From a virus (Duplodnaviria; Caudoviricetes): a stretch of DNA of 61,208 nt. Position numbers and translations under genes: made by a program. The DNA is taken from positions 1-61,208 of the IMG/VR virus record IMGVR_UViG_3300010330_000002, one strand, 5' to 3'. The notes below the pieces were generated by a model that saw only the letters and a program-made list of their open reading frames with translations, searched no databases and was not told the origin of the DNA. This document shows, piece by piece, positions 124-59,344 of this stretch. The stretch's first letter is position 1. Every line of letters begins with the position of its first letter.

Positions 124-3100
124 CAAACACGGTTACAAAAGCAAGAGAAAGTAAGTCCAGATAAATTAATTGACGAAGCTCTTAAATCAGCGGAGCAACA
201 GCCTACTCCAGAGGCTGCTGGCGATACGGCACTGGCTGTATTGCCTCTAGTAATAACTTCGCTAAGCAAGTCTAAGATAGACGCTAACGACTATGCAGGT
301 TGGGCTAAACAAGCTGCTCTGGCCTATGAGAAAATAGCTAAAGCTATCCCTGATGAAGATACATTAGTCAAACAGACCCTTAGCGACACTGTCAAAGCTT
401 TTAAGCTTATAGCAAGTGGCAGAAAGCTAAAGGATGAGGAATTGCCTATTTTGTCCCATGCTAGTGCTGAGGTTGCAGAATGGCCCGATGATATACCAGG
501 CAAACAAGCCCTGCTAAAAGCTATTGATACAGCAATCAAGACTAATGAATTTCCTAAACCTGCTACTGCTGTTCCTGAGTCTAACTTACTTACTCTTGGG
601 TTTAAGGCTTCTGAGCAAAAGAAGCTTAGTGCCGAAGACAAGGAGAAGATTCTAAAGAACAAGATTAGCAGAAAAGATGTGGTTCTCAAAAGGGACGGTA
701 CAGTAGTTTATAAAAAGGAAAAAGCTGTTGGTGAGGAGTTAATCCCCAAAGAAACAACGCCTGCTCCCACTAAGGAAAAGAAGAAAGCGCTGCCTATAGA
801 AGAGGGAATGAAAAAGACTGTAGATGTCTATAAGAATTTGGGATACAGCGCTAAAGACATTTCATCTCTAGCTCCTGAAGAACTAGCTAGAATAAAGAAA
901 GAAAAGATTCCTCGGAAACAGGTAGATATTAAAGAAGGCAAAATTGTACCTAAATCAGTAGAGAAAGTTTCTGCTAAGGAAGTAAAACCTACAAAAGAGC
1001 TAATTCCTAAAGAGGAAAAGCCTCAACAGGCAATTGATATTACCAAATTATCTCAGACGCCTAAGTCTAAAATCGGTGATTTAGTAACCATTGATGAAAA
1101 TGCAAAAGAACTCGTATCTGTAAAAGGCAATAAAGTAACTGTTCATCCTGATTTCTTTAAGAAGAGGAAAGTAACTCGTGCAAAGCTTCTACAAGAAGCT
1201 ATTCAACAAAAACCAGAACAAGCTCCGCCTCAGAAACAAAAAGTACCTCCTCCTAAATTTACAGATACGCAAAAGCGGTCGCTTAAAAAACTGGGGTACA
1301 GCGATAAGCAAATAAAAAGAATGAAAGCGGAAGCCGCTAAGGAAATCTTGTCTAAGAAGATCAAAGCCGATTTTGTTAGTGTAAAACAAGATGGAACTAT
1401 AAAAGTATTTAAAGAGAGTAACGAAGTAGAAGCGGCTCTGAAAAAGAAAGCCAAGGTTCTCAAGAAGAAGCCTAAAGCCGTATCCTTGCCTGAATTTCCA
1501 AAGATGAAAAAAGGGAAAGAGTCCCCTGAATTAGCAGCTAAAGTGTATAAAATAAACTACGATGGCCAATGGCCCGAAGGCTCTATGATGGGCAAACTTA
1601 GTGGTGCATACTCCTTTACTTTGACTGGAAAGACTCATCCTGTTTTTGAGAAAAAGGGCGGGGCAACTACTATAGTTGTGCCTAAAGGAGAACTCCACAA
1701 ACTGCCTGAAATCATCAAACAAAAAGTTAAGGAATACGAAGCAGAGACGGGGCTGTCTGCTCCTGAGCTTATTCCAGGACATCCTGTTAAATCAGAGGCC
1801 AAGAATTTAGAACAAGCTCCCTCTAAAAAGATGAGGTTGTTTAAAGTAAATATGAAAGCCCTTAAACGAGTGAAAGCTTCTCCCACTATTGAGGATAAAA
1901 TAAGTGCTGCTTATTTTAGATTTCAACCTACATGGGAAAAGTTTACAGGGAAAGGGCGGTATTTAATGCCCAATCTTGGCAGGACCAAGCTCGTACAAAA
2001 AGAAGCCAAGGCCAGAGGCGTTCAAGATAAAGACTTGTTTAGGCTTGACTATTTGCTAAGCGCCAAAGAATGGTTAGCTGGAACCAATTTCAAAGAACAG
2101 ATTAAAAAAGGACTAATTACCGAAAAAGAAGCTCAAGCCAGAATTAGGTTTTTCGATAAGTTCGGTGAAAACGTTTTCAGATTTAAGTCCGAGCTAACGT
2201 CTGGTCTAACGGATATGTTTCGTAAATGGGCGGAAGGAGAGCCTTATCGGTTAGACCCTGACGAACCTGATTCTCCTCATATTAACAACATAATTAAAGA
2301 AGCACAGGGAACTCCCAAAGAGAAAATTGCTCCTCGTTATACTCTAAAGGAGTTGCTACATCCACCAAAAGACAAGGCAGAAGATATATCCAACCATCTG
2401 GCATATAGCTTAGCCTACACCATAATGGATCGCTACATCAGGTTGGCTAAGAGCATAGGAGAGTCTGCATTAGAAACTTTGTTGGATAACATGCTAACGT
2501 ATGGCCTGGTCCATTACGAAATGGCCCTTGAAGACGAAGATTCCTTTTTCTTCAACGAAATGGCCCCTACTGAACTGTCCGACGAACAAATTCAGCAGCT
2601 TCTAAAAAATACCACCTTTGACAAAATTGCGGACTACTTGGAGAATTTCCACTTCTTCTATCTAAAGAATAACATGGGGCTTCATAAGCTGGACACCATT
2701 CTAGGACTGTCCGCAGGGTTAATGAAATATACAATGGACCTAATAAGGTCTGAAGAATATTTTGAATCCAATGATGCGGGACGGCTAGTAAGGAATGAAG
2801 TAAAGAATGTAGTTTTTCCTGCTATTCAGCGAATTATCCAGGCTGCCGATAGGCTAATGGTAGTAAGTCGAGACATTAAACATATTGTCGGCATCAAAGG
2901 CATTATGAAAAAGCTGGAGCGCATGATAATAGCATATCAGAATAAGGAGATAGACAACCCTGACAAGTATATCCGCACGTTAGAGCCTTATTGGAGAAAA
3001 GTAATCCTTCCTTACCTGAGCCGTAACGAAAGAGCCTTAGCTGAAAAAATAGGCAGTGAAGAATTTTATGCTTCTAAGAAAGAAGGTCTGGCAGAAAAGA

Positions 3101-6100
3101 TGCTGGACAATCTGGTCAGTCGAATAGATGCGCACGGCGCCAGTGCTAACGGATTTAAAAAGCTGATTACTCAGCCCAATGCAAATGCCTACCAAGGGTT
3201 ATTATATCTAGCCAAACACGCTCAATCGGCCCATGTGCGCTATATGGCTAGCATGTTGAGCGATCTAGGGTACGCTGCAAGGGCGCTACCTGATGTAGAG
3301 ATGAGAATAGCACGCACGCCACGCTCATCTAGGGCGATATTTAACCCCAGGGGGCCTAAAGTCGGGGCTATTTCTATCAGACCAGGACTATCTTCTTCTG
3401 AGATGGAAGCATGTTTCTTGCACGAAGTAGTCCATGCCCTTACTTATTATAGACTGTCTATTAATAAAGAAGCGAATAGGCAAATCAAAGACTTGATGAA
3501 GGAAGTCAGAAAGCACCTGTCCAGCGCTGAAAAGAAAGTAGCAGACCTTCTACTTGAAACTGTAAGATCAAAGACTGAAGTTGATTGGAAAGAAATAAAT
3601 AGAATTGTCACTGGAGACGAATCTTTCAGGAAACACTTTGATGAATTTGGGGAACATTGGTATGGATTACTTTATGCTTTTTCGGACCCTCATGAGTTTA
3701 CGGCATATGCTATGTCTGACCCCTCTGCATACTTATTCCTTAACAGTATCGAAATTGAAACAGAACCTAAAAAATCTCTGTGGGACAAAGTAGTTAATTT
3801 TGTAGCTGATTTATTAGGAATAGGCAAAGAGAAAGCTGCTCTGTGGACAGAGTCTGTCAAAGGTGTATTGAATATTATTAAACAAAGTCATCTGAGGGAA
3901 GTCGCAGAGCTTAAATCTATACGAGGTGAACCCCGATTCTCCGATTATCTGAAAAAACAAATAATGGGGGAAGCGCCTGCTGAAGAAGCTCTAAAAGATT
4001 TCCAAGTCAAACAATTTGATGGCGAACTTGCTCAGTTTGCTCCTTCTTTGAATGACTATGATTATGAGCACCTAAAAGGTTTTGCTAAACAAATCTTAAA
4101 GCAGTCGCCGAAGGCTGCTCCCAAGCTTGCAGATATAGGAAAAGTTCGTAAGGCAGTGGGGCTACCGTTGTGGACTTCTCTTATACATCCAGAATTTGCT
4201 CCTTTATTCAAACACGTAGTTAAAGCTATGGAAGAGAAGAACTTTTCCCTCCATAATATTTTGGAATCGGGAGATATATACTTCTCCCAACTCAATAATG
4301 AGGAGAAGGAAGCAGTCAATGCCGCTGTTAAAATAAGTGACGCTCTTAATATCAAGTTCAGTAAAAAAGAACTTGCTGAATTTCCTACTACTGTCAAAAA
4401 GCTTAAACAACTTTTTAATCAGCTTTTCTTGTACAGAAATGCTCCTGCCGCTATACGGCAACAGCTTTTGGAACAATCTGAATTTGATTTGCCCAAAGAG
4501 TATTCGCAACCAGAATATATTAAGCGGTTTAAGTATTTTTTTGATTATGCTTTGCCCAGCCTTAAAGTTAAAAAGATTTTCGGTACTGCTGCCGACGGGT
4601 ATTACAATTACCGAGAGGTAACTAACAAGACAGCGGAGCATATTTCTGACAAGCTTTTAACTCTTATCATTGATACTGTCATAAAAGACCCTATGGCAGC
4701 TAATACGGTATTTACCCTAATAAAGCATCCTAAACTAAAAGAGCAGTTGTCCAAAGAAAGTATGGCTATCTATAGGCCGTTAATAGAAGAAATAGAAAAT
4801 CATTCTTTGTTCAAAAAATATGAAAAGATTAGGGAGTTGATAGATAAGCTAGATTTTTACAGCCCTCGATACAGGGATCAGGACGCTGCTGAAATGATAG
4901 TAGCTTTCGATAAAGAAGCGTTTAAAGCCTCTTTTTCAAAACATATCGCTCAAACTGGAAGCAGAGCCAAAGCTTTGGAGAAGGTCTATAATGATCTCTC
5001 CCAGCAAAACAAAGTATATCTGAGAGAGCATGTCAGGCGCATAGACCCTGATATGCACAAAAAGATAGATAGAGCCAAAAAAGTATTTGGTAAAGAAAAC
5101 GTAGTGCTGTTGCTCCCTAATTACAAATTGGCAGAAAGCGTTTATGGGGATATTACCGAAGGCAATGTAGGTTCTTTCCTGGAAACTTTGGCTAATAAGA
5201 CTAAAACTGCTCAAGCCAACCCCGAAACTTTGAGCAATATTCTTAATGAGATTTCTAATATCATTGAAGAAGAACTTTTAGCTAGAAGTAGGGCGGGGCA
5301 AAAGTTCTTACATAGAAATCCTTATTTGATTTTAGGTTATCATTTGGACAAAACTACTGAAGAAACGTTTAACTATGTCAACAACGCTGCTAACTATATG
5401 GCTCGTATTGATGCTTTGGTTAATGGGCTGCCTCTGCTAAACAGGATTGACCCTAAACAACAGCCAAAATTGAGGGACTATGCCCATAAGTGGTTTTTCG
5501 ATCAGCTTAAACCACAAACTCAATTCGATAAGGTAGTCGGTAAAACCAAGGCGTATATGTTTTTGTGGTATTTGAGCGGGATGCTTCGTCCTGCGGCAGT
5601 ACAAACTACTCAGATGTTTGTCAGTACCATACCTTTGGCCAAAACTATTTACAAGATACCGATGAGCAAATCTATCAATCTATTTATGAAGGCTTACAAA
5701 GATGTAATCCTCAGCGGTAGTATAGAAGATAATGACAATCTGACTGAAGACGAAAAGAAGTTTTTGAATGTTACTTATGCCAAAGGTGTAACTACCGCCC
5801 AGTTTATCAATCAAATAAGAGACGAGGTAGCGGGGAGTGGTGGCTGGGCCGTTAAGGCAGCAACATGGCTGTCTACTCCGTTTGCATATATGGAACAAAC
5901 CAACCGTCTGGCTACCGCTTTAGGGGTATATAGGTTCTTTAAAGAAGGCAACAAAGGCATTAAACCTGACGATCCTACGTTGATTAACGAAGCTACTGAC
6001 CTAATTAATATGTCCCATTTTCTAATGGGAAAGCTAAACCTACCTTCTATTGCTACAGGTGGCACTGTGCCTCAAGGTTTGGCCCGACTAGCAGTGACAT

Positions 6101-6966
6101 TTAGGTCGTTTACCATGAACCTTATGGAATTATATAACTATACTTTGCGTCATATGCCTGCTAGTAAAAAGTTATGGGACCTGAATAAAGAAGGGCTAGA
6201 GTTTGTAGCATATAGCCTCCTAGCATTTACAATGTTTGGAGGGCTCCTTTCTATACCTTTCCTTGATGATTTGCTCAAATTACTTGAGCGACAGACAGGC
6301 AAGCCATTGAGACGCCAGTTCTTTAAAAAGATAGGCGATATTAATAGCCCGTTGGCTTATAGCCTGGAGCGAGGGCTGCCCTCATTGATAGGAGTAGATT
6401 TAAGTGGTTCTCTAAAGATAGAGATACCGACTTCTCCTTCTGATGCGCTGAACGCAATATTTGGCGTATATGGCGGCCTGGCCAAAAACGCTACGGACTC
6501 TCTTGTCGCATATCAAGGATTTGATAAGATCAACGCTGTTTATAGAATTTTGCCCCAGTTCATAGGCAATCCTCTAAAAGCATACGAAACATATAAAGGA
6601 TTGAAAAACCAATACAATAAACCTATATATGACGAAAACGGAAAACCTATTAAAGCTACTCCGTTAGAGGCTTTATTAATTGCCACAGGGTTTCGTCCTA
6701 CCAGGTTTGGGAAGACGTATTCTTATAAAAGCGCAGCAAGAAACATAGCTGCTCATTTTAGAGAAAGGCGAAATAAAATTTATAATATGTTTAGGTCGGC
6801 AGAGACACCTGCGCAACGTAAAAAAGTATTAGAAGAAATAATGAAATACAACAAGGAAGCATCTAAGTACATCACTGTTCCTAGAATAACTCTCAGGGCT
6901 CTTACTGCCGCTATTACCCCCAAGAGGGAGAAACTAGCTGAAGAACTAAGAATGAGAGGCCTCTAA
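37..6966 (+). CDS. Giant internal virion/ejection-type polyvalent protein, C-terminal part (true start 60381 across the junction, ~2556 aa); contains a zincin HExxH metallopeptidase-like motif
   Basis: Last gene of the structural operon; FLHEVVHALT...HEFTAYAMSDP; Lys-rich repeats; open frame from 60381 through the junction. Confidence 0.75.
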   Translation: MDDYVRDLVDTTVITLGQTSLTGLPGIALQTRLQKQEKVSPDKLIDEALKSAEQQPTPEAAGDTALAVLPLVITSLSKSKIDANDYAGWAKQAALAYEKIAKAIPDEDTLVKQTLSDTVKAFKLIASGRKLKDEELPILSHASAEVAEWPDDIPGKQALLKAIDTAIKTNEFPKPATAVPESNLLTLGFKASEQKKLSAEDKEKILKNKISRKDVVLKRDGTVVYKKEKAVGEELIPKETTPAPTKEKKKALPIEEGMKKTVDVYKNLGYSAKDISSLAPEELARIKKEKIPRKQVDIKEGKIVPKSVEKVSAKEVKPTKELIPKEEKPQQAIDITKLSQTPKSKIGDLVTIDENAKELVSVKGNKVTVHPDFFKKRKVTRAKLLQEAIQQKPEQAPPQKQKVPPPKFTDTQKRSLKKLGYSDKQIKRMKAEAAKEILSKKIKADFVSVKQDGTIKVFKESNEVEAALKKKAKVLKKKPKAVSLPEFPKMKKGKESPELAAKVYKINYDGQWPEGSMMGKLSGAYSFTLTGKTHPVFEKKGGATTIVVPKGELHKLPEIIKQKVKEYEAETGLSAPELIPGHPVKSEAKNLEQAPSKKMRLFKVNMKALKRVKASPTIEDKISAAYFRFQPTWEKFTGKGRYLMPNLGRTKLVQKEAKARGVQDKDLFRLDYLLSAKEWLAGTNFKEQIKKGLITEKEAQARIRFFDKFGENVFRFKSELTSGLTDMFRKWAEGEPYRLDPDEPDSPHINNIIKEAQGTPKEKIAPRYTLKELLHPPKDKAEDISNHLAYSLAYTIMDRYIRLAKSIGESALETLLDNMLTYGLVHYEMALEDEDSFFFNEMAPTELSDEQIQQLLKNTTFDKIADYLENFHFFYLKNNMGLHKLDTILGLSAGLMKYTMDLIRSEEYFESNDAGRLVRNEVKNVVFPAIQRIIQAADRLMVVSRDIKHIVGIKGIMKKLERMIIAYQNKEIDNPDKYIRTLEPYWRKVILPYLSRNERALAEKIGSEEFYASKKEGLAEKMLDNLVSRIDAHGASANGFKKLITQPNANAYQGLLYLAKHAQSAHVRYMASMLSDLGYAARALPDVEMRIARTPRSSRAIFNPRGPKVGAISIRPGLSSSEMEACFLHEVVHALTYYRLSINKEANRQIKDLMKEVRKHLSSAEKKVADLLLETVRSKTEVDWKEINRIVTGDESFRKHFDEFGEHWYGLLYAFSDPHEFTAYAMSDPSAYLFLNSIEIETEPKKSLWDKVVNFVADLLGIGKEKAALWTESVKGVLNIIKQSHLREVAELKSIRGEPRFSDYLKKQIMGEAPAEEALKDFQVKQFDGELAQFAPSLNDYDYEHLKGFAKQILKQSPKAAPKLADIGKVRKAVGLPLWTSLIHPEFAPLFKHVVKAMEEKNFSLHNILESGDIYFSQLNNEEKEAVNAAVKISDALNIKFSKKELAEFPTTVKKLKQLFNQLFLYRNAPAAIRQQLLEQSEFDLPKEYSQPEYIKRFKYFFDYALPSLKVKKIFGTAADGYYNYREVTNKTAEHISDKLLTLIIDTVIKDPMAANTVFTLIKHPKLKEQLSKESMAIYRPLIEEIENHSLFKKYEKIRELIDKLDFYSPRYRDQDAAEMIVAFDKEAFKASFSKHIAQTGSRAKALEKVYNDLSQQNKVYLREHVRRIDPDMHKKIDRAKKVFGKENVVLLLPNYKLAESVYGDITEGNVGSFLETLANKTKTAQANPETLSNILNEISNIIEEELLARSRAGQKFLHRNPYLILGYHLDKTTEETFNYVNNAANYMARIDALVNGLPLLNRIDPKQQPKLRDYAHKWFFDQLKPQTQFDKVVGKTKAYMFLWYLSGMLRPAAVQTTQMFVSTIPLAKTIYKIPMSKSINLFMKAYKDVILSGSIEDNDNLTEDEKKFLNVTYAKGVTTAQFINQIRDEVAGSGGWAVKAATWLSTPFAYMEQTNRLATALGVYRFFKEGNKGIKPDDPTLINEATDLINMSHFLMGKLNLPSIATGGTVPQGLARLAVTFRSFTMNLMELYNYTLRHMPASKKLWDLNKEGLEFVAYSLLAFTMFGGLLSIPFLDDLLKLLERQTGKPLRRQFFKKIGDINSPLAYSLERGLPSLIGVDLSGSLKIEIPTSPSDALNAIFGVYGGLAKNATDSLVAYQGFDKINAVYRILPQFIGNPLKAYETYKGLKNQYNKPIYDENGKPIKATPLEALLIATGFRPTRFGKTYSYKSAARNIAAHFRERRNKIYNMFRSAETPAQRKKVLEEIMKYNKEASKYITVPRITLRALTAAITPKREKLAEELRMRGL

Positions 6967-9320
6967 AACGCTAAAGTAGTTCCAACCTTTCCATCAGTTT
7001 CAATGGGGTATCCTACAGTGATACCCCAATTCTTTTTTATATATTCTTTGGTCCTGTTCTCGAAACAATCCTTTAAGATTTCTTGGCATTTCTCTACCAC
7101 GTCTTCTCTAGCTCGGTAATAATAGGCGTCGTGGATGAATAGATTAGTCAATTTGACTTTGGTTCTAAGTCTAGGCTGGCTCATTATTTCTTTGTAGAAC
7201 AGGCTTACCCCCAAACAAGCCAACTCCGAACTAAAGTTTTGGACTGGAGTATTGATAGCCTGCCTTTCTGCTTTGCTTCTCCAATAAATATCTTTGTCAT
7301 TGATCTTGGGCAAATGGCGTATCCTGCCCAATACACATCTAACGTGTCCTAATCTTGATGCTATTGCTACCATCTTTTTATGGTAAATAGGCAGGCGCCA
7401 GTACCCGTTGGGTACAGAGAAAAATTTCTCTCTATAAAGGGTAGCTTCTTTTTCAGTTAGAACTATGTCATAGTTTTTAAACGCATAATCTACTAAGGTT
7501 TTGGCTTGCATACCATAAAGCAATCCAAACACTACTGGTTTTGCTTTTTGCCTTTGTTCTTTAGTTACCTTGTCATAGGAAACTCCTGCTAATATGGATG
7601 CGGTGTAAGTATGAATATCTAATCCCTTATTCAAGGCCCCCAGAATGTTCTCGTCTCCTGCCAACCATCCTGCTATTCTTACTTCGCTCTGGGAAAGGTC
7701 TTGCGTGGCTATTACATACCCGTCTTCGGTAGTTATCAGTTCTAAGATATATTTAGCCAGGTCTCCATGAGTAGGGAATTGTTGTAGAGGCGGGTCAAGA
7801 ATAACCGTCCTTCCCGTAACAGTACCTGTAAGAAATATTTTAGGATAGATATAGCCATCTGGCTTTAGGTTTTTCCTAAGCAGAGGAATGTAAGTGCTTA
7901 GAATCTTTTTTATTCTATTATACCTAATAAGATCAGCAACCCAGGGATTGTCTTTAAACCGTTTCAGATGATGTTTGTCTGTAGAGGGTTGTTGAGTTTT
8001 CTCTGTAAAAGAGATTGGTTTTAAGCCCAAACCTTCTTTGGTAAACATATATTTTGCTATGACGTTGGGTGTGAGCTTTTCGGCGTCTGGTGGCAGGAGC
8101 TTTTCCTCTAGTTTGGATAGCTCGTCGTACAAGACATCCTCATTTTCATCGAGCTTTTTAAGATTTATAGGCCATCCTGTTTGTGAGATATTGGCAAACG
8201 CATTTTCTACAGGAATCATATAATAGTAATAATACCGTAGCAGTTTCTTATCTCGGCTAATCCGTGGAGCTAATTCTTTATAGACTTGGAGAGTAGCTTT
8301 TGCATCAATGGCAACGTATTTGAGTAACTTGGCTTTGCTTATTTCTGATAGGTTGCTACGGTTGTGCCCGACTATATCTTTTATGTTATACATATCAGTG
8401 TAGACATTGGCCAGATGCTCCAAATTATATGCTTCCATGTTTTCATCTACTACATGAGCCATAGTCATTACATCGTAAATCGGGCCTTTTACTTCACACT
8501 TCAAATTCTTTTTGCATATCCATTCATCAAATGGGCGGTTATGTACTACTTTAATTATCTTGGGGTCAGAAAGAATTTGCTTGATCTTGGGTTTAAGTTT
8601 ATTGTCTTTGATTCTAGCGGAATAAATCTTGTCTTTTCCTGCTACTGAAATGGCCAAGACTTCGCCGTTAGTATGAACTACGTCTAGGTTTTCTGTCTCC
8701 AGATCAAAGGCTACTACTTTGGAAGTTGGAGGGTCGATAGAGGAATATTCTATCTCTATCTCTGGAGTTTTACCGTGTTTTAGATATTCCACTGCTTCTT
8801 TGATGTCTGAGTAGAAAAGTTTTTCTGCCTCTCCCATTTTTGATACAGGGATATTAGGATAGCCAGCATGGGCCTGTCTTAGAATATATGAGGGATGGTA
8901 CGTTGCTATGTAAGTATACGGCCCTACGTTGTGTATTTCTCCTCGGAACTTGCCAATCTTTTTTCTGTTTAAGTGTTGAAGCAGGGACCATTCTCCCAGC
9001 AAAACAATAAGATCAGGTTTGAGTATTTCGAGGGCCTGCATTACATATTCTTTGCAATGTTTTACTGCCGATTCGATGTCTGCTCTAGAATCATTAGGCA
9101 GTTTGGGGCATCGCATCGAATTTAAAATAGAGTAATCCTTTCTACTTAGCCCAAAAAGTGAAAACGTTTTCATTAGCAATTGCCCACTTGGGCCGATGAA
9201 AGGCTTACCAGATTCTAATTCTTCCCTGCCAGGACATTCCCCTATTACAACAAGTTTAGGAGAATTCCTCTCGTACTTAACCTTCGGTCTTCCTTTGAAT
9301 GGACAGTCTTTACAGCTCAT
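6963..9320 (-). CDS. polA: Family A DNA polymerase with N-terminal family-4 uracil-DNA glycosylase domain and 3'-5' exonuclease
   Basis: UDG: CxxC, IGECPG, PFIGPSG, YHPSY; Exo: FDLET, HNRPFD, YVAIDA; Pol: DLSQSEVRI, RQKAKPVVFGLLYG, FIHDA. Confidence 0.95.
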   Translation of the reverse strand: MSCKDCPFKGRPKVKYERNSPKLVVIGECPGREELESGKPFIGPSGQLLMKTFSLFGLSRKDYSILNSMRCPKLPNDSRADIESAVKHCKEYVMQALEILKPDLIVLLGEWSLLQHLNRKKIGKFRGEIHNVGPYTYIATYHPSYILRQAHAGYPNIPVSKMGEAEKLFYSDIKEAVEYLKHGKTPEIEIEYSSIDPPTSKVVAFDLETENLDVVHTNGEVLAISVAGKDKIYSARIKDNKLKPKIKQILSDPKIIKVVHNRPFDEWICKKNLKCEVKGPIYDVMTMAHVVDENMEAYNLEHLANVYTDMYNIKDIVGHNRSNLSEISKAKLLKYVAIDAKATLQVYKELAPRISRDKKLLRYYYYYMIPVENAFANISQTGWPINLKKLDENEDVLYDELSKLEEKLLPPDAEKLTPNVIAKYMFTKEGLGLKPISFTEKTQQPSTDKHHLKRFKDNPWVADLIRYNRIKKILSTYIPLLRKNLKPDGYIYPKIFLTGTVTGRTVILDPPLQQFPTHGDLAKYILELITTEDGYVIATQDLSQSEVRIAGWLAGDENILGALNKGLDIHTYTASILAGVSYDKVTKEQRQKAKPVVFGLLYGMQAKTLVDYAFKNYDIVLTEKEATLYREKFFSVPNGYWRLPIYHKKMVAIASRLGHVRCVLGRIRHLPKINDKDIYWRSKAERQAINTPVQNFSSELACLGVSLFYKEIMSQPRLRTKVKLTNLFIHDAYYYRAREDVVEKCQEILKDCFENRTKEYIKKNWGITVGYPIETDGKVGTTLAF

Positions 9321-14090: not shown

Positions 14091-14793
14091 CGGTAGCTTC
14101 CTCTTTCTCGTCTGAATCCTCGACCTCGTTAAATATATCGTCTATCTCTGCTCCAACGTCTTCTTCTGACCCTACTACTGTAGTGTCCATACCAAGGGCT
14201 TCAAGCTCTTCGTCAGTAGGAGGGGCCAGAATAACCTCATAGTCATAAGGCTTGTTGTCTTCGAACTTAGACAGATTGACCTTTCCCAATACCTCAAAAT
14301 AGTTACCGCAATTAGGGTCGTTGCTGGTGTACCGCTTTACTTTCATAGCGATGCCACGCAAATTTTTATGCTTCTTTTTGAGGTCTTCTATGAAATTAAT
14401 AGCAGAGCCTTTCAGAGGAATGAGAACCTTTCGGTTCTTTACTACCTTTCCGTCTGTAGTGGTGTACTTCCTACCATCAATGACCGTGTAATAGGCCGTA
14501 TACGTAGGACGGTAACCTTCCTTGCACACTGCACATGGGGCAAAATCGTCAGTACAAGTAACAAAGTTACCCCACTTACCACCAATTTTGAGATTATGTT
14601 CTTTGATATAGAACCCTTCGGAGTCCAAGAAGACTATCTTTGCCTCTTCATCAGGCTTTAGCCAAAACCTTGGAGCATATTTCTCCTTACGCTTTTCAGC
14701 TACTGCATCGAGTTTCTTCTTCTCTTCGAAACCATCCTTGCCTTTTTTAAACCAACCACTGGGACTCGTATTTTGTCCTTTTTTCTTAGCCAT
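14050..14793 (-). CDS. Single-stranded DNA-binding protein
   Basis: H..C..CxxC metal motif, strongly acidic C-terminal tail, position next to primase. Confidence 0.7.
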   Translation of the reverse strand: MAKKKGQNTSPSGWFKKGKDGFEEKKKLDAVAEKRKEKYAPRFWLKPDEEAKIVFLDSEGFYIKEHNLKIGGKWGNFVTCTDDFAPCAVCKEGYRPTYTAYYTVIDGRKYTTTDGKVVKNRKVLIPLKGSAINFIEDLKKKHKNLRGIAMKVKRYTSNDPNCGNYFEVLGKVNLSKFEDNKPYDYEVILAPPTDEELEALGMDTTVVGSEEDVGAEIDDIFNEVEDSDEKEEATDDSTEENLHELFS

Positions 14794-14794
14794 T

Positions 14795-15736
14795 TTAGAC
14801 CTCCTTGATAGTCGCTAAGACTTTCTTGATTATTCCTTTTTCTACGGCCTCTGCTGGGTCGTTACATCCAAAATACTTGGTAACTCTGTAAAACTTTACG
14901 CAGTCTTTTAGATTCTCGTACACTCTCTCTGTTGCTTTCTCACCCCCTTTGTCGTTGTCAAAGAATAGAATCATGGTTTTTGCCTCACATTTCCGCAATA
15001 CTTTTAGCTGTGCATTGCTTATTTCCGCCCCACCGCTGGCCCATACATTCGCTGCTCCTTTGTCGAATAGAGCCAAAAGGTTGCGCTCTCCTTCTACCAG
15101 TATAAGAGGTTTGTTTGGGTCGATAGGGCGGTGATACCCAAACCACACGCCTAAACTATGAGGCATAGTGCCCCCTAGTTCTTTGTAATACCTGTATTTC
15201 ATCTTGTCTTGGATGCGCTTGCTTTTTCCTAAATACCGTCCTTTGAGGGCTACTACTCGGTTGTTGTAATATCTAATCGGGATTACTAATCTTCTCTCTT
15301 TAGCATCGTACCTAAGAGAAAATACATGGATAGTTCGCATAGAAAACATGTTTCCTTTGTACAAAGGAAAAGGAATTTCGTTGATGTACTTAGGCTGCTT
15401 AGGTGCTATATTCCAGAATAATCTGGGAATAAACTCATGAGACGAAAGCATGGATTTCAAAGTTGGGTCGTTTATCCCTGTTATTTTCTTCCATATTCGA
15501 GGCAGATTACGAATGTGCCCTTTAGTCCCGCAAGCAAAGCAGTTGAATACACCGTTGTTGGTGTTTATCCCAAAAGAGGGATGCTCGTCTACTCCGTGTT
15601 CATGAGTCCATTTGGCAAAAGGGCATGACGCTTTAATCCATACAGAGGGTTTAGCAACGTCGTACTTTATATGGCTACAACCCAGATACCTCAATACCTC
15701 CAGGAATAAGTTCACGTTTGCTGGCACGTTTCCCAT
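14795..15736 (-). CDS. DNA primase (CHC2 zinc finger plus TOPRIM)
   Basis: CPF..H..PSF..CFACG; LVEGE; FFDNDKGG. Confidence 0.92.
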   Translation of the reverse strand: MGNVPANVNLFLEVLRYLGCSHIKYDVAKPSVWIKASCPFAKWTHEHGVDEHPSFGINTNNGVFNCFACGTKGHIRNLPRIWKKITGINDPTLKSMLSSHEFIPRLFWNIAPKQPKYINEIPFPLYKGNMFSMRTIHVFSLRYDAKERRLVIPIRYYNNRVVALKGRYLGKSKRIQDKMKYRYYKELGGTMPHSLGVWFGYHRPIDPNKPLILVEGERNLLALFDKGAANVWASGGAEISNAQLKVLRKCEAKTMILFFDNDKGGEKATERVYENLKDCVKFYRVTKYFGCNDPAEAVEKGIIKKVLATIKEV

Positions 15737-15968: not shown

Positions 15969-17167
15969 TCGAACGGTAGCTCCGTTTCTACTTCTGAAAA
16001 ATCCATCCTCTCCCAATTCCAATTGATTTGGAATATGCAATTAGTCCCTTCTCTATTAGCAACCATCTCAACTGTTTTTACATTTGATCCCTCCTCTCCG
16101 GATATTCCTATAGCTACTGAACATAACTGAGATAATGCGTCTGTTAAGTGAATGTGTTCCAGTCCCCCAGACTTGGTTTTAGGCGCTTCTCTGTTGAACT
16201 GGAACGAGACTATCAAAGGGATGTTGAAGTTTAGCGCCATCAGTTTTAGCTCCTGGGCTATCTCAGAAGCTACTTCCCACTTTGATTTGTACTTACTCTG
16301 TACTTTTATGAGATACCCCCCGTCAATGAATACAAGATCTGGTTCGTGGTTGTCGATTAAAGCAAAAATATCATCAAATCCGTGTTGGAATTTCCCATCG
16401 ACATAAATTAGAGGAACAGGACTCTGCTTCAATTCTTCCAACGATCTCTCTGCAAAAGTGGAGATTTCGCCCTTCTTTATTGCTTCAAATTTGAGTTTAT
16501 TGGCAAGAGCTGTGATTCTCTTTGCCTGTTGCATTAATCCCATTTCCATAGAGATTAGCATTGCTTTATACCCTGCTTTAGCTGCTGCATATGCAGAGTA
16601 GACCATCATCATGCTCTTGCCTCTTTTGGGCCTTGCTAAAATTAAATCCAGGTCTCCAGGTTGATAACCATCACAAGCTTCGTCTAAACTTTTCCATCCA
16701 GTGGGGATTCCGAATGTCTGTCCTATCTTTGTTCTACGTTCTCGTACATACCCTAAAAACACGTCTATTAACTCATCAAAGGTGTAAACCCCATCGTCTG
16801 TTTTTTGGATGCTTCGGTAGTAATCTACAATGTTTTTCATAATATCGAGAGCTTTTTGCACATTGTGTTTGTGTAGTGCAGTCTCGATTTCTTGGGATGC
16901 TTGAAACAAATCTTCCTTAAATTTTCTCTCAATACACCGTTCGAGCAGTAGCTCGATTGGAGAATCAGGGATAAGTAAAGTATCTTCGTCTAAAAGTTCA
17001 GCTAAAGTTGGAAGGCTCGGTAGCTCCCCGTATTTTTTAATGTAGTTTTTGATTACATGGTACACCTCTTTTTCATCCTCAATGAAAACGTTTTCACTCA
17101 GTTTGTTGAATAATTTCAAGTCTTTATTGTTAACTACTGCTGTTAGTAATCTAATTCCTATCGACAT
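15965..17167 (-). CDS. dnaB: DnaB-like replicative helicase
   Basis: GIPTGW..LD, ARPKRGKS, SMEM, FIDG, QFNR. Confidence 0.92.
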   Translation of the reverse strand: MSIGIRLLTAVVNNKDLKLFNKLSENVFIEDEKEVYHVIKNYIKKYGELPSLPTLAELLDEDTLLIPDSPIELLLERCIERKFKEDLFQASQEIETALHKHNVQKALDIMKNIVDYYRSIQKTDDGVYTFDELIDVFLGYVRERRTKIGQTFGIPTGWKSLDEACDGYQPGDLDLILARPKRGKSMMMVYSAYAAAKAGYKAMLISMEMGLMQQAKRITALANKLKFEAIKKGEISTFAERSLEELKQSPVPLIYVDGKFQHGFDDIFALIDNHEPDLVFIDGGYLIKVQSKYKSKWEVASEIAQELKLMALNFNIPLIVSFQFNREAPKTKSGGLEHIHLTDALSQLCSVAIGISGEEGSNVKTVEMVANREGTNCIFQINWNWERMDFSEVETELPFE

Positions 17168-22683: not shown

Positions 22684-22712
22684 AATTTAAGATTTGAAAA
22701 TCCATTTGTCAA
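22684..22712 (-). promoter_or_regulatory. Sigma70-type leftward promoter
   Basis: TTGACA-17 bp-TAAATT; flanking AAAAATTTTTnCTTGACAAAT shared with the promoter at 17970-17998. Confidence 0.75.
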
Positions 22713-39600: not shown

Positions 39601-39725
39601 TTGAGGAAACGCAGGCTCAATTTGCTCAGCAACAAAGTCCTATAAATGTACCTCAGAATAAAGCGGTGCAGCTTGGTATGGGCGTTTCTAATTATGTAAA
39701 TGAAAACGGGAGGGTAGCTATATGA
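36681..39725 (+). CDS. Portal protein (intein-containing)
   Basis: Follows TerL; VLEFWG, SFWG, GAGR/TATGLSML. Confidence 0.88.
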   Translation: MVSFVPVKDMSSALLPEEPFTEMVELKTQDQYVLSNLSNYVLSKFEEARRAKVGIEERLIDCLQRFKSEYSPQKLQEIKSIDAPPIYIPLTSIKVRALTAWLVDVLFQTPDLPYDITPTPIPELPLEVQHALARRVYDTIMPMVELLPFNELQSMALDAKNLAEKEIKIEIDKWSKKLAEGFKKKLDDVFIEGGLPEALSAMCVDIAIFPTAIIKGGILRKEKGYVRTKYGLEPKNKVIYTFNRVSPFNAYPAPYSSGFENYFIEVVPLLPNDLYDMIGMPGYNSKILTEVLDRYEHGYKFHHMNYGLDKEALEGNEFASSSDYEYIDVLEFWGPVKGSLLKDFGISVPSSNAYYEATVWVIEDYVIKAVLNENPLGLKPYAKASFIDIPDSFWGQALPEVLAPIQDSVNAFARSVVVNAAMSSGPMVERNIDRVDPSQPKMIIPWHMYDAHDSALNSAPAYRFFQPQLTADRLSTVMAYYLKLADETCGIPSYAHGDITVGGAGRALADYELVLTETGAKPISSIEVGDKVAGTDGKFYEVLGVYPQKGKRLIYRVHFSNGFTIDCDADHLWTVSSKPSRKSSWQTLTLAELLNKGIFRQDNGRKSKGLRPKWAVSKIKPVQFPKREVKIDPYTLGVILGDGDNRGRIHLNTEDSEHIISQLAYSVGKPSYNSAKTAVSYTVKGVKKWLRFYGLGDTTAPDKFIPEDYLFNTVDVRLALLRGLMDTDGYTSEGRVFLSSSSRKLIEQVKFLVISLGGWAGTITEYPEGEGEIKGRTIHRKKNYRLYFSLSENVFTLPRKKEAVKGGKRPTWFVYIRGIELLGEGTTTCIKVSSPDHLFLCANLIPTHNTATGLSMLTNNATRGIKAVLRNIDKGIIEPIVKRQYYTLIKEANVTDIPDLKIRTKGSISLSEREMEATRALEFLRVVSNPLDQNLVPLEGRRYLLTSAAKATGFDPDRIFGYEADLQQMLRPLIEETQAQFAQQQSPINVPQNKAVQLGMGVSNYVNENGRVAI
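38199..39227 (+). mobile_element. Class 3 intein (343 aa) with LAGLIDADG homing endonuclease, in the portal
   Basis: Ala1 start; DHLW, TCIKV, PTHN/T (WCT triplet); LGVILGDG and LRGLMDTDG. Confidence 0.88.
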
Positions 39726-40850: not shown

Positions 40851-40887
40851 CTAAGTGAAAACGTTTTCATTTTTGGAGGCAATATGG

Positions 40888-48468: not shown

Positions 48469-49075
48469 GCTTGTCCAAAGAGTAAGGCAGCTTTTGTTTG
48501 ACACAGAAGTTCCTTACTTGTGGGAAGACCCTGATCTCGAATTTTATTACTATCTTTCTGTAAGGGAGATGTGCCGCCGCACTCTCCTTTACAGGGAGAC
48601 CTTTGATCCTATTCTTTCTGTAGCAAATCAGTATTTGTATAACTATCCTGATAGGCTATTGTTGCCTCTGAGCATTACTTATAATGGAAATGATTTGACT
48701 AAAGTCGATTATGACAGAATAAAATCTGTAAGAGGTACTGTGGGGACAGTCAAATATTATTGTTTGGATTATGCCCCGAAACAAATTGTCTTACATATGA
48801 CCCCCGAAGAAGATGATAAAGAGATTGTTATCTACGGGGCGGCTGTTCCTGATTCTTCTCATATTCAAACAGCTATTCCTGATGAATATACTGATTACTT
48901 GCTTTATGGGATGTTAATGTTTGCTTTTCAAAAAGCTGATTCAGAAACAGTTAGTCCTTTTGCATCCAAATACGAGACTCTTTGGAATGCGTACATCGAA
49001 AAGATTAACAGAGAATTAGATAGGAACAAGTATGTTCCAACATCACAAACTTACACACATCCTGGGTTGCTGTGA
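48455..49075 (+). CDS. Head-tail adaptor / tail tubular protein
   Basis: VR.LL.D...PYLW.D..L; position after the capsid genes. Confidence 0.7.
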   Translation: MNRSELVQRVRQLLFDTEVPYLWEDPDLEFYYYLSVREMCRRTLLYRETFDPILSVANQYLYNYPDRLLLPLSITYNGNDLTKVDYDRIKSVRGTVGTVKYYCLDYAPKQIVLHMTPEEDDKEIVIYGAAVPDSSHIQTAIPDEYTDYLLYGMLMFAFQKADSETVSPFASKYETLWNAYIEKINRELDRNKYVPTSQTYTHPGLL

Positions 49076-49773
49076 AACCTATATTTCAGACAGAATTGTT
49101 TTTAGGAGAGATACGAACTCCTCCTAAGTTTGTAGCGGTGTCTAAAAAGACTCCGCTTCCCCTCTTGATTAACGGCTTACCTACCGATTCGGGTTCTCTT
49201 AAAACTCAAGCATTAACTGGATTAGAATTTATCGGAGAAGCGCACCCTCCCCCATTGTCTATTCAATTTACTTCTTTAGGGAGAGAGTGGAGGGCAGAAG
49301 GTAATAGGCTTTATTACAGTCCTCCTTTTACTTCTCTTCGTATTGATGGCGGCGAACATTATGAGGACGATTCAATTCGACCTATTACTTTTAAACAACT
49401 AATTACTGCTGTGAGCGTAAGTCCTTCGTCTGTAGTATGTAAATGGGCGGTGTACATTTCTACTACAGAAGCTGTTTATGTGATAAGATTTCAGGGAACA
49501 AAACCAGTCATACAAAAAGTAGTTAGTGCTCCTGCGCTTGGGTCGATAGGAGTAGGAGTTTTGGCTCGGCCTGCATCAGATGAACTTCCTTCTGGAACTC
49601 AAATTGTAGTTATTCCTACTCATAAAGGAATATTCCTGGCTACAGAAACAGGATTATTGCCTTTAACTGAGTCTCACCCAAATGCATTGGAGCATTTTGA
49701 CTATGTACATATCGCTTTAGTATCAAATGATTATGGCCAGTATTTAGTGTTTTTAGATGCGTTAAAGAAGTGA
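49072..49773 (+). CDS. Putative tail protein
   Basis: Structural-operon context. Confidence 0.55.
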   Translation: MKPIFQTELFLGEIRTPPKFVAVSKKTPLPLLINGLPTDSGSLKTQALTGLEFIGEAHPPPLSIQFTSLGREWRAEGNRLYYSPPFTSLRIDGGEHYEDDSIRPITFKQLITAVSVSPSSVVCKWAVYISTTEAVYVIRFQGTKPVIQKVVSAPALGSIGVGVLARPASDELPSGTQIVVIPTHKGIFLATETGLLPLTESHPNALEHFDYVHIALVSNDYGQYLVFLDALKK

Positions 49774-49801
49774 AAACGTTTTCATTTTTGGAGGTAAGTA
49801 A

Positions 49802-57465: not shown

Positions 57466-57466
57466 A

Positions 57467-59344
57467 ATGAGCTACGATGTAACTGAACTTATTTCAGAGA
57501 GACTAGACGCAATTAATAGCGGGATAAATTATACCCTAAATACTATTACAAATGTTATTAATGGGTTTCTATCTAGAGGTGTGTTGGAAATTGACCCTGC
57601 TTTTGTTGAAGATTTGCATCTTCATACTTATCCTATTCCTATTTTATCAAAGGGCGTAGGTGCGTCCGACATACAGCTAATTCCTACTGATTTAAAATTT
57701 CCTGATCATTCTGCTGAAGATTTTGATTTAAATACACTCATTTCTGAATTTGATTCTATACTTACAGAAATAGGCCAGAACATTGCTCCTCCTACAATTG
57801 ATTCTGTTTCTCAAAATCTGCATTCTATTTCTGCCCCACGTATTCCAGATAATTTAGATTCTATAGAATCTCCTTCTTTGGATACTGTTAAACTCCCTAC
57901 TTTACCAGTATTTGACAAAATTTCTGTTCCCTATCCAGAATCAGTTACTACGAATTTCACACCTTCGGATGTAACTTCGCTAACATTTGTTGAAACTCAA
58001 CATTTATTTGAAGAGTTTGACTCTATTTTACAAGAGGAATTGCAGTTTTCCACATACGTTCATAGTTTGATAAAAGATAGGCGCCTTAGAGTTGGAGAGT
58101 TGGTAGAGTTTTATGGCAGAATTTTAAACGCTCTTAAGGCTACTAATCCTCTTCAAAGAACTAGGGGAGTTATTGATGAAATCAATCAAATTGTAGATGA
58201 GGGTGAAGAGAAATTCATCAAACCTATTTATGATAGGTATACTACTTTTGTCTCTGAGGATATTAAAAATAAATTAGAAAATTTATATTCCCAAGCTAAA
58301 ACTTTGAGTGAAGGGCAATTACAAGAAAAATTTTATAGTGAAAACGTTTTCACTGATCGAGATAAAGAAGACGAAATAGAGGTTTTAAAGCTTCAACTTA
58401 AAGAAGATTTGGACAAACATGAAGCTGCTTATATGGACATTTGTATCCAACTCTGGAATCTTACTCTTTCTTATGTTCTTGTTTATGTAAATAAGTTATT
58501 GATAGAGTTTCAGCAAAGAATTGAATATGAGAGGGTTTTGGCAGAACTTCATGCTAACTTAGGCAAAGCAATTTTTCAGTATTATAATTTGTACGATTCT
58601 TTACTTCAGGCGGGAAATGTTCAGTTAGATAATTTTAAAGCTATTTTGAGCAAAGCTGATACAGAGTTGAATAAACTTCAATCTATATTAGAAAAAAACA
58701 ATGCTTATATCGAAGCATACGCCGCTCAGATTACTGGGCTTCAGACTTTAGTAGACAAGTACGATACTGATAGGAAAAATTACCAGGCACAACTTACTGA
58801 GAGGTCTTCAAGAGTAGACTTAGCTAAAACTGTGTATCAAAACAACCAGGCTAAGGTTGATTTGTATCAAAGAGCCGTAGGCTTGGTTAATAAGTTGTAC
58901 AGATTAAGACAAGAGAAAATAAGAGATATTCTCAATAGGACTAAAGCTAAAGTAGGTGCAGCTAAAGCCCAGCAGAGTTTAGATGTAGCAGGCTCTAAAA
59001 GCCTAGAAGAAATTTACAATATTTATGGGGATATATTAGAAACAGATGTGAGCAGATATAATGCCGAATATAACAATGTTCTCAAAGATAATTTAATGGG
59101 TTACAAAACTACAGTCCGTTTGAACGCAGAACGAGCTAATTTGTTGAAGCAAGCTTATTCAGTATTTCTTCAGAAAGTGATGCAGGAGAACCGCTATCTT
59201 CTAACAACTACTAGACTGGTCAATAGCACTGTAAATAAAATTGCTATGGAAGGAATCAGGCCCCTGTCTTCTATGTCGGCTGGGTTGCTGAGCGCTATTG
59301 ATGCTGTTGTCAATGGCTTATATGAATTTGTTGCAGAGGGATAA
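57467..59344 (+). CDS. Internal virion protein (Pro-rich plus coiled coil)
   Basis: Context; C-terminal AGLLSA matches AGALSA of the previous gene. Confidence 0.65.
   Translation: MSYDVTELISERLDAINSGINYTLNTITNVINGFLSRGVLEIDPAFVEDLHLHTYPIPILSKGVGASDIQLIPTDLKFPDHSAEDFDLNTLISEFDSILTEIGQNIAPPTIDSVSQNLHSISAPRIPDNLDSIESPSLDTVKLPTLPVFDKISVPYPESVTTNFTPSDVTSLTFVETQHLFEEFDSILQEELQFSTYVHSLIKDRRLRVGELVEFYGRILNALKATNPLQRTRGVIDEINQIVDEGEEKFIKPIYDRYTTFVSEDIKNKLENLYSQAKTLSEGQLQEKFYSENVFTDRDKEDEIEVLKLQLKEDLDKHEAAYMDICIQLWNLTLSYVLVYVNKLLIEFQQRIEYERVLAELHANLGKAIFQYYNLYDSLLQAGNVQLDNFKAILSKADTELNKLQSILEKNNAYIEAYAAQITGLQTLVDKYDTDRKNYQAQLTERSSRVDLAKTVYQNNQAKVDLYQRAVGLVNKLYRLRQEKIRDILNRTKAKVGAAKAQQSLDVAGSKSLEEIYNIYGDILETDVSRYNAEYNNVLKDNLMGYKTTVRLNAERANLLKQAYSVFLQKVMQENRYLLTTTRLVNSTVNKIAMEGIRPLSSMSAGLLSAIDAVVNGLYEFVAEG

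Follow-up and report, generated by a model that had tools for sequence, protein, structure and literature searches.

KorB, the ParB-fold global transcriptional repressor of the ~60-kb IncP plasmid RK2, binds a palindrome, OB, that occurs in many copies, some beside promoters and some kilobases away (PMC11790492). In the Cluster A mycobacteriophages (L5 and its relatives), the repressor binds many copies of its site, the stoperators, many of which reside in short intergenic gaps, and the bound repressor halts transcription elongation (PMC9283540); in phage N15, SopB binds the inverted repeats IR1-4, present in several copies in the phage genome (PMC7205306). Here, we analyze a 14-bp perfect palindrome, TGAAAACGTTTTCA, that is dispersed across the genome of an uncultured tailed phage (IMG/VR record IMGVR_UViG_3300010330_000002, positions 1 to 61,208; "the window" denotes this whole stretch), a complete genome of 61,208 bp with a direct terminal repeat of 123 bp and a G+C content of 39.7%. 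We tentatively suggest, at slightly less than an even chance, that the palindrome is the site of a phage-encoded, two-fold symmetric ParB/KorB-like protein of 213 amino acids (21432-22073, minus strand), and that the sites make up a genome-wide operator network.

The original prediction, which was made from the letters of the window alone, listed 13 exact copies of the palindrome, and all 13 were recovered at the same positions. It also put the expected number well below 0.01; the base composition predicts ~0.0007 copies per 61 kb, and the word did not occur in any of 100 dinucleotide-preserving shuffles. The enrichment was further assessed against a codon-preserving shuffle, in which synonymous codons are permuted within each open reading frame (ORF) and intergenic bases are permuted, leaving the proteins and the per-gene codon pools unchanged. 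Across 300 such shuffles, the mean number of copies was 0.24 and the maximum was 2, compared to the 13 observed, so that the excess persists in the test against a codon-shuffled genome that had been proposed; for the broader TGAAAA-NN-TTTTCA family, 18 members were observed versus a mean of 0.80 and a maximum of 3. The anticipated TG- and TA-centred variants are represented by five sites in the window, TG at 18852 and 28315 and TA at 28193, 28238 and 28267. Also as anticipated, the word is translated in different ways, as ENVF in the giant ORF, DnaB, an 87-aa ORF, the portal intein region and the gene at 57467, and as KTFS in the DNA polymerase (Pol), TerS, a phosphoribosyltransferase and the gene at 33784; in two further cases, its TGA is the stop codon that ends ORFs 26370-26909 and 49072-49773.

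Exact-word scans of IMG/VR together with a capsid protein search yielded four related records. The closest, G001b, comprises 58 kb of a 137-kb record, is ~74% identical to the window at the nucleotide level and carries 14 exact copies and 4 centre variants. G002 (60.9 kb, ~66% identity across the 14 kb that align) carries 9 exact copies and 5 centre variants, G006 (60.2 kb, ~66% identity across the 14.6 kb that align) 16 and 9, respectively, and the incomplete G009 (49.6 kb; amino acid identity of 54% in the capsid protein and 50% in TerL) 5 exact copies and no others. Thus, G009 carries the identical word though its proteins are only 23-54% identical to those of the window. The respective means of the codon-preserving shuffle are 0.20 for G001b, 0.07 for G002, 0.27 for G006 and 0.013 for G009. 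Eleven of the 13 exact window sites can be aligned with G001b by BLAST, and all 11 are letter-perfect, against a background of 3.8% among the 48,806 other aligned 14-mers; for G002 and G006, two of the three alignable sites are letter-perfect in each case (background 0.67% and 0.51%, respectively). The sites are found at fixed offsets within conserved genes, namely, at nucleotide (nt) 148 of the Pol gene in four genomes and at nt 71 of the dnaB gene in three. In a late gene of ~610 codons, the site falls at nt 851-899 in all five genomes, including G009, where the protein is beyond BLAST detection. Every one of the five genomes also holds sites at places that are empty in the others, which implies that sites are gained and lost. 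Both retention beyond background and turnover at non-homologous places, which the original prediction had proposed to look for in relatives, are therefore observed. Given that the excess survives the codon-preserving shuffle and that the word is conserved in the relatives, purifying selection acts on the DNA word itself, as originally claimed, and not on a peptide.

The 137-kb record that contains G001b (IMGVR_UViG_3300017593_000402; G001, L022-L028), although rated complete, appears to consist of two unrelated phage genomes joined together: positions 1 to ~79,000 produce matches to QueC, FolE2, RNR and an SU10-type capsid, and positions 79,043-137,043 are the relative of the window. The other 79 kb, an unrelated phage with queuosine-pathway genes, contain no sites.

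Alignment of the 57 exact sites from the five genomes shows that the full unit is an 18-bp palindrome, A-R-TGAAAA-CG-TTTTCA-Y-T, consistent with the earlier remark that the site is often extended. The flanking preference is symmetric, with A at -2 (51 sites) and T at +2 (48 sites); position -1 is G in 32 sites and A in 17, and position +1 is C in 30 and T in 13. Beyond ±2 nt, the flanking phage sequences are unrelated. Among the 83 14-mers that differ from the word by at most two mismatches in the five genomes, 57 are exact, 23 differ in the centre only and 3 include a change in an arm. The near-invariance of the arms, combined with the variability of the centre, suggests that two identical half-sites are read by a protein and that the spacer between them is tolerated. 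The half-site would then be A-R-T-G-A-A-A-A, with the central CG only preferred. In G006, all eight one-mismatch variants are CG to TG or CA transitions, as deamination of methylated CpG would give; no methyltransferase was detected by Pfam among the 81 ORFs of the window. A mobile repeat, similar to repetitive extragenic palindromes (REP) or miniature inverted-repeat transposable elements (MITE), was considered and rejected because there is no shared sequence outside the core and the sites lie in frame, at fixed offsets, in conserved genes.

The placement of the sites relative to genes is strongly biased. Of the 57 exact sites, 25 lie on a start codon or within 40 nt upstream of one, 6 more are intergenic and 26 are intragenic, whereas random positions, evaluated with a mechanically derived ORF set, are start-proximal in 7.0%, intergenic in 3.1% and intragenic in 90% of the cases. 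With 13-16 exact copies per 60 kb and 31 of the 57 sites start-proximal or intergenic, compared to 10% at random, the distribution resembles that of stoperators, which are oriented with transcription; here, the asymmetric centre variants occur in both orientations. The usual order at a junction is the palindrome, 2-15 nt, GGAGG and the start codon. In approximately seven genes, the TG of the start codon constitutes the first two letters of the site, so that the gene begins with (A/G)TG-AAA-ACG-TTT-TCA and the protein with M/V-K-T-F-S.

The genome is organized in two gene blocks. The leftward block extends from ~22.7 kb to 6.9 kb and encodes the ParB-like protein, an AAA ATPase, DnaB, primase, an SF2 helicase, RecA and a fusion of uracil-DNA glycosylase with PolA (UDG-PolA); the rightward block runs from 22.75 kb, around through the genome end, to 6.97 kb, and encodes TerS, many small genes, lysozyme, TerL, a portal protein with a LAGLIDADG intein, SU10-type head and adaptor proteins and a giant ORF. 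In the divergent region between the blocks, two back-to-back sigma70-like promoters are recognizable (22684-22734), a rightward one, TTGTCA-17-TAGAAT (22706-22734), and a leftward one, TTGACA-17-TAAATT (22712-22684). The exact site at 22763-22776 covers the TerS start (ATG at 22762) and spans approximately +21 to +35 relative to the rightward promoter. All five genomes have a site in the leader that is transcribed from the TerS promoter; its distance from the -10 element is 6, 12 or ~28 nt in four genomes and larger in G002. Operators that serve to block the polymerase, and not to recruit it, typically vary in position in this way.

The second promoter-associated arrangement is a cluster of five sites at 28193-28328, with the centres TA, CG (the exact site at 28215), TA, TA and TG and spacings of 22, 23, 29 and 48 bp between their starts. 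The cluster belongs to a 358-bp gap (28004-28362) that also contains a hairpin with a T run and CTCATAT direct repeats. The -35 hexamer of the best promoter match in a scan of the 20-40 kb region starts 5 nt past the last palindrome: at 28334-28375, on the plus strand, TTGAAA-18-TATAAT (11/12) overlaps TTGACT-16-TATATT, and the gene served starts at ~28404, preceded by AGGAGG. The direct repeats, CTCATAT or CTYWTAY, run between the hairpin (~28016-28052) and the palindromes, at 28073-28180; four of the seven plus-strand copies of CTCATAT in the genome fall within 131 bp, and the repeats may represent iterons or be bound by a second protein, although they lack conservation in G001b.

Several other sites mark junctions between genes. 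At 26907-26920, the TGA of the palindrome is the stop codon of ORF 26370-26909, with AGGAGG and the next start codon within 20 nt; at 49771-49784, it is the stop codon of ORF 49072-49773, followed by GGAGG and the ATG of a virion structural gene, and this site is conserved in four genomes. The site at 32002-32015 overlaps the final codons of the phosphoribosyltransferase gene, 20 nt before the next start codon; that at 33785-33798 covers the GTG start of a 73-aa gene (V/M-KTFS); and that at 40856-40869, which is kept in G001b, lies between genes and is followed by TTTTT-GGAGG-CAAT-ATG. The remaining sites are inside genes. Those at 2166-2179 (interior of the giant virion ORF, ENVF frame), 20871-20884 (interior of the 87-aa ORF of the leftward operon) and 39053-39066 (interior of the portal gene, adjoining the LAGLIDADG intein region) are all kept in G001b. 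The site at 9159-9172 is at nt 148 of the UDG-PolA gene (M-KTFS frame), with the same offset in four genomes, and that at 17083-17096 is at nt 71 of dnaB, with an offset shared with G001b and with G006, where it is a TG-centre variant. Conversely, the TG-centre variant at 18852-18865, in the interior of the AAA ATPase gene, is matched in G001b by an exact CG site at the equivalent position. Finally, the site at 58339-58352 is at nt 872 of the 625-aa gene that represents, in the window, the late gene of similar size in which the position of the site is conserved throughout the five genomes.

Taken together with the predicted properties of the candidate binder discussed below, these placements are compatible with the following scheme. 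One group of sites adjoins host-type promoters, with five in front of the -35 hexamer at 28334 and one in the TerS leader; a second occupies the short junctions before ribosome-binding sites or the start codons themselves; and a few others lie within genes. The bound protein, most likely the conserved helix-turn-helix protein of the ParB/KorB type encoded on the minus strand, could switch or block transcription genome-wide, by promoter repression or as a roadblock, in a manner analogous to that of KorB on RK2 and of the mycobacteriophage stoperator repressors. Among the regulation, condensation, segregation or packaging roles put forward in the original prediction, the choice leans towards regulation. 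The enrichment, the selection on the word, the bias in position and the joint occurrence of lineage-specific palindromes and the protein family are well established here, and the identity of the binder, its dimeric state and the direction and purpose of the control are inferred.

The location of many sites next to ribosome-binding sites brings up a different kind of element, an RNA hairpin near the ribosome-binding site or start codon that would be bound or cleaved and would control translation, mRNA stability or polycistronic processing. Such an element could account for the 25 of 57 sites on or within ~40 nt upstream of a start codon, for the approximately seven genes that begin with the palindrome itself, for the T runs that follow all five G009 sites and for the absence of a nearby promoter at most sites. 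We nevertheless consider it very improbable. The predicted hairpins are weak (-0.7, -5.0 and -6.8 kcal/mol for the 14-mer, 18-mer and 22-mer, respectively), and none of the 26 variants has a compensatory change in its arms, which stay invariant. Furthermore, several sites are upstream of -35 hexamers and hence are probably not transcribed from those promoters; in the cultured Stenotrophomonas phage DLP5, the asymmetric variants found on one coding strand point in either direction (11 versus 5); and ordinary GC-rich terminators are also in use by these phages. An intrinsic terminator was rejected on similar grounds: the predicted energies are -0.7 to -6.8 kcal/mol, no site was picked up in a terminator scan and T runs follow only some of the sites.

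Few proteins are common to all five genomes, and the 213-aa product of 21432-22073 is the only one among them that looks DNA-binding. Pfam produced nothing significant for this protein, PHROGs returned families of unknown function only and a PDB profile search gave rows at the chance level only. A search of 5.8 billion proteins identified seven close relatives, none of them named, and the ESM Atlas yielded only leads below 0.9 ("DUF1016/ParB HTH" and, at 0.83, "DUF3102"). In the first AlphaFold2 (AF2) model, built from 9 sequences (predicted local distance difference test, pLDDT, 73.7), residues 14-137 match the DNA-binding domains of ParB, Spo0J and Noc with Z scores of 8.7-10.5; 12 of the top 13 VIA rows are chains of such domains, the match to the Noc-NBS complex 6y93 has Z 10.2 and a root mean square deviation of 2.8 over 112 residues, and KorB is matched at Z 6.8. 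Raf1 helical domains score 6.9-9.1 with this model, and the remaining unrelated chains score 4.0 or less. The second model (24 sequences, pLDDT 83) was compared in an unbiased search to 48,161 chains, without Foldseek; the top match was the ParB-parS complex 6s6h (Z 7.6), with Spo0J at 6.3, KorB at 5.6 and 5.3, SopB at 3.8-4.3 and then VirB. The Foldseek E-values for the model of the 213-aa protein are at least 0.18. The modeled protein is all-helical from residue 17 on, following a short, disordered, Lys-rich tail, and ends with an acidic C-terminal tail.

The protein does not match ParB_N (the ParB/Srx CTPase domain) at E≤1 in a search that detected ParB_N in DLP5 gp114. Among the 81 ORFs of the window, no ParA, CbiA or AAA_31-type match that would indicate a ParA/SopA-type ATPase was found using Pfam and PHROGs, and the scan of the same ORFs revealed no integrase, ParB N-terminal CTPase domain or KorA. 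Because the predicted fold is ParB-like but neither the CTPase domain nor a sequence match is present, we call the protein ParB/KorB-like in its probable mode of working and not a member of the family. Judging from the predicted fold (a ParB/Noc/KorB-like helical domain) and from its presence in all five motif-bearing phages, this protein is the best candidate for the binder, in line with its listing among the candidates in the original prediction, where it appeared as a helix-turn-helix protein.

A link between the protein and the palindrome is also suggested by distant homologues. A pattern search based on the protein alignment identified 21 viral loci that encode homologues of the 213-aa protein, with 26-81% identity, and most of these loci carry a dispersed palindrome of their own, of the shape TG-N4-NN-N4-CA or, in locus L216, GG-N4-NN-N4-CC, with letters that differ between lineages. 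The form TGAAAAcgTTTTCA is found in low-GC relatives; TGAAAAcgCTTTCA occurs 6 times in a contig with 24% GC (5 copies in one orientation and 1 in the opposite one); TGCAATcgATTGCA and TGCAATcgCTTGCA are each present in 5 copies and TGCAATcaATTGCA in 3-4; and GGAAATtaATTTCC is a lineage-specific form of a single locus. The form TGCAATtaATTGCA is present in 5-27 copies per 12-20 kb (27 in 20 kb), and in whole records, it was counted 47 times in 92 kb, 25 times in 96 kb and 32 times in 72 kb. The homologues from cultured phages come from those infecting Vibrio, Stenotrophomonas, Rhizobium, Rhodobacter and Aeromonas. The whole record of DLP5 holds 27 TGCAAT-NN-ATTGCA sites and none of the reversed control pattern, and 6 TGCAAT-NN-ATTGCA sites are present in the 50 kb of RcZahn that were examined. 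Three phage sequences that lack the homologue (G001a, VA-RY-3 and Ss1) show no palindrome family with more than 3 copies.

In RcZahn and in 7 of the 17 loci examined, the start codon of the homologue itself is preceded, at a distance of 55-108 nt, by a site, as expected of an autoregulated regulator; several of these sites stand 8 nt before a -35-like hexamer. More generally, in the high-GC lineages, the palindrome is often located 8-9 nt upstream of a -35-like hexamer that belongs to a well-formed promoter, as it is at 28315 in the window. The motif GWTK(L/F)KEI is invariant in the protein family. The helix that precedes it contains YR-I/N-A-L/M in four of the five distinct sequences of the TGAAAA class and mostly YRKAT in the TGCAAT class, with RKAK, RTAK, YRRAV and YRKSM in four others. 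These residue differences appear to track the class of the site, but this is suggestive only because they follow the phylogeny, too. In locus L208 (IMGVR_UViG_3300025572_000001), positions 14500-15600 are a ~1-kb non-coding stretch in which nine copies of TGCAATTAATTGCA alternate with a repeat that contains TAACATGTTA; this stretch is a candidate for the control or origin region of that phage, and the small genes lined up after it each possess a terminator, a palindrome and a promoter of their own.

Several observations weigh against the identification of the 213-aa protein as the binder of an operator network. Searches of Pfam and PDB with the sequence find nothing, and the fold match is moderate: in the second model, it reaches Z 7.6 next to 5.5-6.3 for Raf1 helical domains, and helical packing alone can attain such values. 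SIO-2 encodes a homologue and has 1 strict and ~9 loose sites. The homologue loci L215, L217 and L219 have no palindrome family (recurrent TTGCA-containing 10-mers were detected in L215 and L219, and nothing in L217). The covariation between residues and sites is confounded by phylogeny, and co-occurrence cannot separate the 213-aa protein from the other genes of a shared replication module. In the phages of the class to which the window belongs, no site lies within 100 nt of the gene, which stands third in an operon with a site in its promoter region. Many sites have no recognizable promoter nearby; in the late region, 40-60 kb, promoter matches are no higher than expected from shuffling, so that the sites there cannot be tied to promoters. 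Finally, 26 of the 57 sites are intragenic, which a simple promoter-operator model does not explain.

Alternatively, the operator network could have a different phage-encoded binder, for example TerS, the Zn-ribbon proteins at 32954 and 34002 or a small helix-turn-helix protein that escaped recognition, with the ParB-like protein merely co-inherited as a gene of the replication module. The co-occurrence involves the whole conserved module and not a single gene; a site is found on or before the TerS start in five of the five genomes; and many small ORFs have no annotation. One potential regulator in the shared module, DLP5 gp059, is of the MerR type, and no counterpart of it was detectable in the window. 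We regard a different phage binder as quite unlikely, given that the Zn-ribbon proteins lack conservation among the five genomes, with nothing similar detected in G009, and that no protein other than the ParB-like one is at once conserved in the five genomes, DNA-binding in its predicted fold and, in eight lineages, accompanied by a site at its promoter. TerS is conserved as well, but dispersed sites are not a known feature of its family.

The original prediction also noted the resemblance of the CG-centred form to LacI/GalR/CcpA-type operators, and left open whether the dimeric protein that binds the sites comes from the phage or the host. The resemblance is real: the 14-mer is identical to the core of the published RegPrecise CcpA consensus of Streptococcus thermophilus, ATGAAAACGTTTTCAA (PMC6090898), and near-identical CcpA sites have been reported in vivo in group A Streptococcus (PMC8359418). 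A host LacI/GalR/CcpA-family regulator acting at cre-like operators, which would couple the phage to the carbon status of the cell or would be titrated by the sites, would also fit the strong GGAGG ribosome sites and the TTGACA/TATAAT-like promoters of the phage. However, 23 of the 80 sites with perfect arms have TG, CA, TA or another centre, and three of the five sites in the cluster have TA, although LacI-family proteins need the central CG. The base before the TG is G in 56% of the sites, where cre has A or T. The phages of Stenotrophomonas and Rhodobacter (Proteobacteria) that encode homologues share the architecture with TGCAAT-NN-ATTGCA sites, the centres of which are mostly TA or CA, and the unrelated phage joined in the same record as G001b has no sites in 79 kb. 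The variable centres, the flanking bases and the TGCAAT-class phages of Proteobacteria all point to a convergent likeness to cre. Therefore, the host CcpA/cre reading is unlikely, and we assign a host regulator a very low probability overall; of the two branches of the original prediction, the phage one is favored, albeit with a candidate only, and the host one is less likely.

The search of candidate host genomes for the motif, which had also been suggested, did not provide a credible host lead. In a scan of 185,579 species genomes with the 18-mer, 26 stretches were found, of which 16 came from a single Planctomycetota metagenome-assembled genome (MAG) and the remainder were singletons save for one tandem pair; none of the 26 pointed to a host. 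The Planctomycetota MAG (OY970367.1, 6.49 Mb; L174-L197) contains the identical 18-mer AGTGAAAACGTTTTCACT 17 times; 14 of these copies are inside a longer repeat with a REP/MITE-like look that strings together three palindromes, TTCGAACGGTTCGCA, the 18-mer and GTGTGAACCGTTCACAC. As these loci average 53% GC, the repeat is probably unrelated to the phage. The tandem pair comes from Sphingomonas rubra (NZ_FOXP01000009.1, 14914-15531; L183), where the palindrome occurs twice, 13 bp apart, in a locus with 56% GC; the arrangement looks like a tandem operator of a cellular regulator.

How does the proposed protein-site pair compare to the described systems? KorB shares with it a short palindrome that recurs many times over ~60 kb (RK2 reportedly carries 12 OB sites) and a DNA-binding domain that matches the models of the candidate with Z 5.3-6.8. 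Unlike the phage protein, which has no CTP-binding domain and for which neither ParA nor KorA was found in the 81-ORF scan, KorB binds CTP through its N-terminal domain, moves along DNA as a sliding clamp and works with KorA and with the ParA partner IncC; furthermore, the OB core, TTTAGCGGCTAAA, is unrelated to the phage site (PMC11790492). Stoperators are asymmetric and are bound by a monomeric two-domain repressor (PMC9283540), in contrast to the perfect palindrome and ParB-like candidate binder described here. The DNA-binding domains of SopB are among the fold matches (Z 3.8-4.3), but in N15, a proven linear plasmid prophage, there are 4 sites, SopB is full-length and includes an N-terminal domain for spreading, and the SopA ATPase is present as well. 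The N15 repeats are said to be scattered and to affect phage gene expression. Noc-NBS and ParB-parS provide the best fold matches (6y93 and 6s6h), and their palindromes of 14-16 bp are dispersed over the replicon; the site sequence differs, the phage protein lacks the CTPase domain, membrane targeting and a ParA partner, and the Pfam ParB models do not match it. The phage half-site GTGAAA(A)C is similar to the half-site of the parS consensus, GTGAAAC, in everted order.

These parallels also frame the question of whether the same protein-DNA pair performs a physical job instead, with the sites serving as centromere-like, organizing or origin anchors in the style of parS, Noc-NBS or the N15 repeats, for segregation of a plasmid-like prophage, compaction or coupling of replication to packaging, and with the five-site cluster as the core locus. 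The predicted fold resembles those of ParB, Noc, SopB and KorB, all solved with palindromic centromere or operator DNA, and one dense cluster with a CTCATAT direct-repeat run beside it is accompanied by dispersed single sites. Cultured DLP5 and DLP3 persist as phagemids (PMC5834331, PMC7326821), and two homologue-bearing records are classed as proviruses. The spacing of the sites is slightly more even than random in the window (p=0.02) and in G006 (p=0.035-0.047), but not significantly so in G002, and thus is inconsistent. A physical role appears rather unlikely, considering that no ParA-type ATPase, ParB CTPase domain or integrase was found among the 81 ORFs scanned, that the direct repeats are not conserved in G001b and that the bias towards gene starts and the fixed distances of 5-9 nt to -35 hexamers in several lineages point to transcription.

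Outside the sites themselves, the phage has no close cultured relative at the DNA level (one weak match), and searches with TerL and Pol led to distant matches only. The ORF at 60381-61208 runs in frame through the terminal repeat into 1-6966, so that the two form a single giant protein of 2,556 aa, which is 78% identical in G001b and 24% identical in G009 and has no Pfam or PHROG match. An N4-like virion RNA polymerase that would use hairpin promoters, an idea prompted by this giant ORF, was rejected because the sites precede late genes and are intragenic in both senses. The LAGLIDADG intein-like insert of the portal gene (36681-39725) comprises residues 715-785, and the N-terminal domain fused to the DNA polymerase A (6963-9320) belongs to the uracil-DNA-glycosylase superfamily. 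The TerL homologue of G006 (L167:13084-15966, record positions 33084-35966) is 960 aa long and that of the window 625 aa; the difference points to an insertion, for example an intein.

The openly searchable full texts, queried with the sequences and with the names of the cultured phages, yielded no description of these palindromes; the string "palindrom" occurs 0 times in the DLP3 paper. What would be new is the combination of a CTPase-less, partner-less ParB-like candidate with a perfect palindrome, and a site that apparently diversifies across podophages and siphophages. It is conceivable, although we consider it doubtful, that a widespread, previously undescribed family of CTPase-less ParB-fold proteins acts as the master regulator of tailed phages of marine and soil bacteria. 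If so, each lineage would possess its own co-evolving palindrome of 14-18 bp, in 10-47 copies per genome, located beside early promoters, at the promoter of the regulator itself, at gene junctions and inside genes, and one protein-site pair would join KorB-type silencing, stoperator-type elongation blocks and the centromere; it may also serve as the switch by which phages that lack an integrase, for example DLP5, are able to persist as phagemids. Genome-wide networks of sites for a single regulator are known from few mobile elements, the KorB system of RK2 and the Cluster A stoperators, and this would be a third, phylogenetically broad example. The arm code is readable, TGAAAA versus TGCAAT versus GGAAAT, and changes with the protein, and this simplicity makes it a natural system for the study of the co-evolution of specificity and regulon. 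The protein is carried by cultured phages, namely, RcZahn, Stenotrophomonas phages DLP3 and DLP5, Vibrio SIO-2-like phages and Rhizobium phages, with sites present in two of those checked, so that bench testing is possible at once. A family of "hypothetical proteins" would thereby gain a testable function, and the motif would flag the regulatory junctions in otherwise unannotatable phage genomes.

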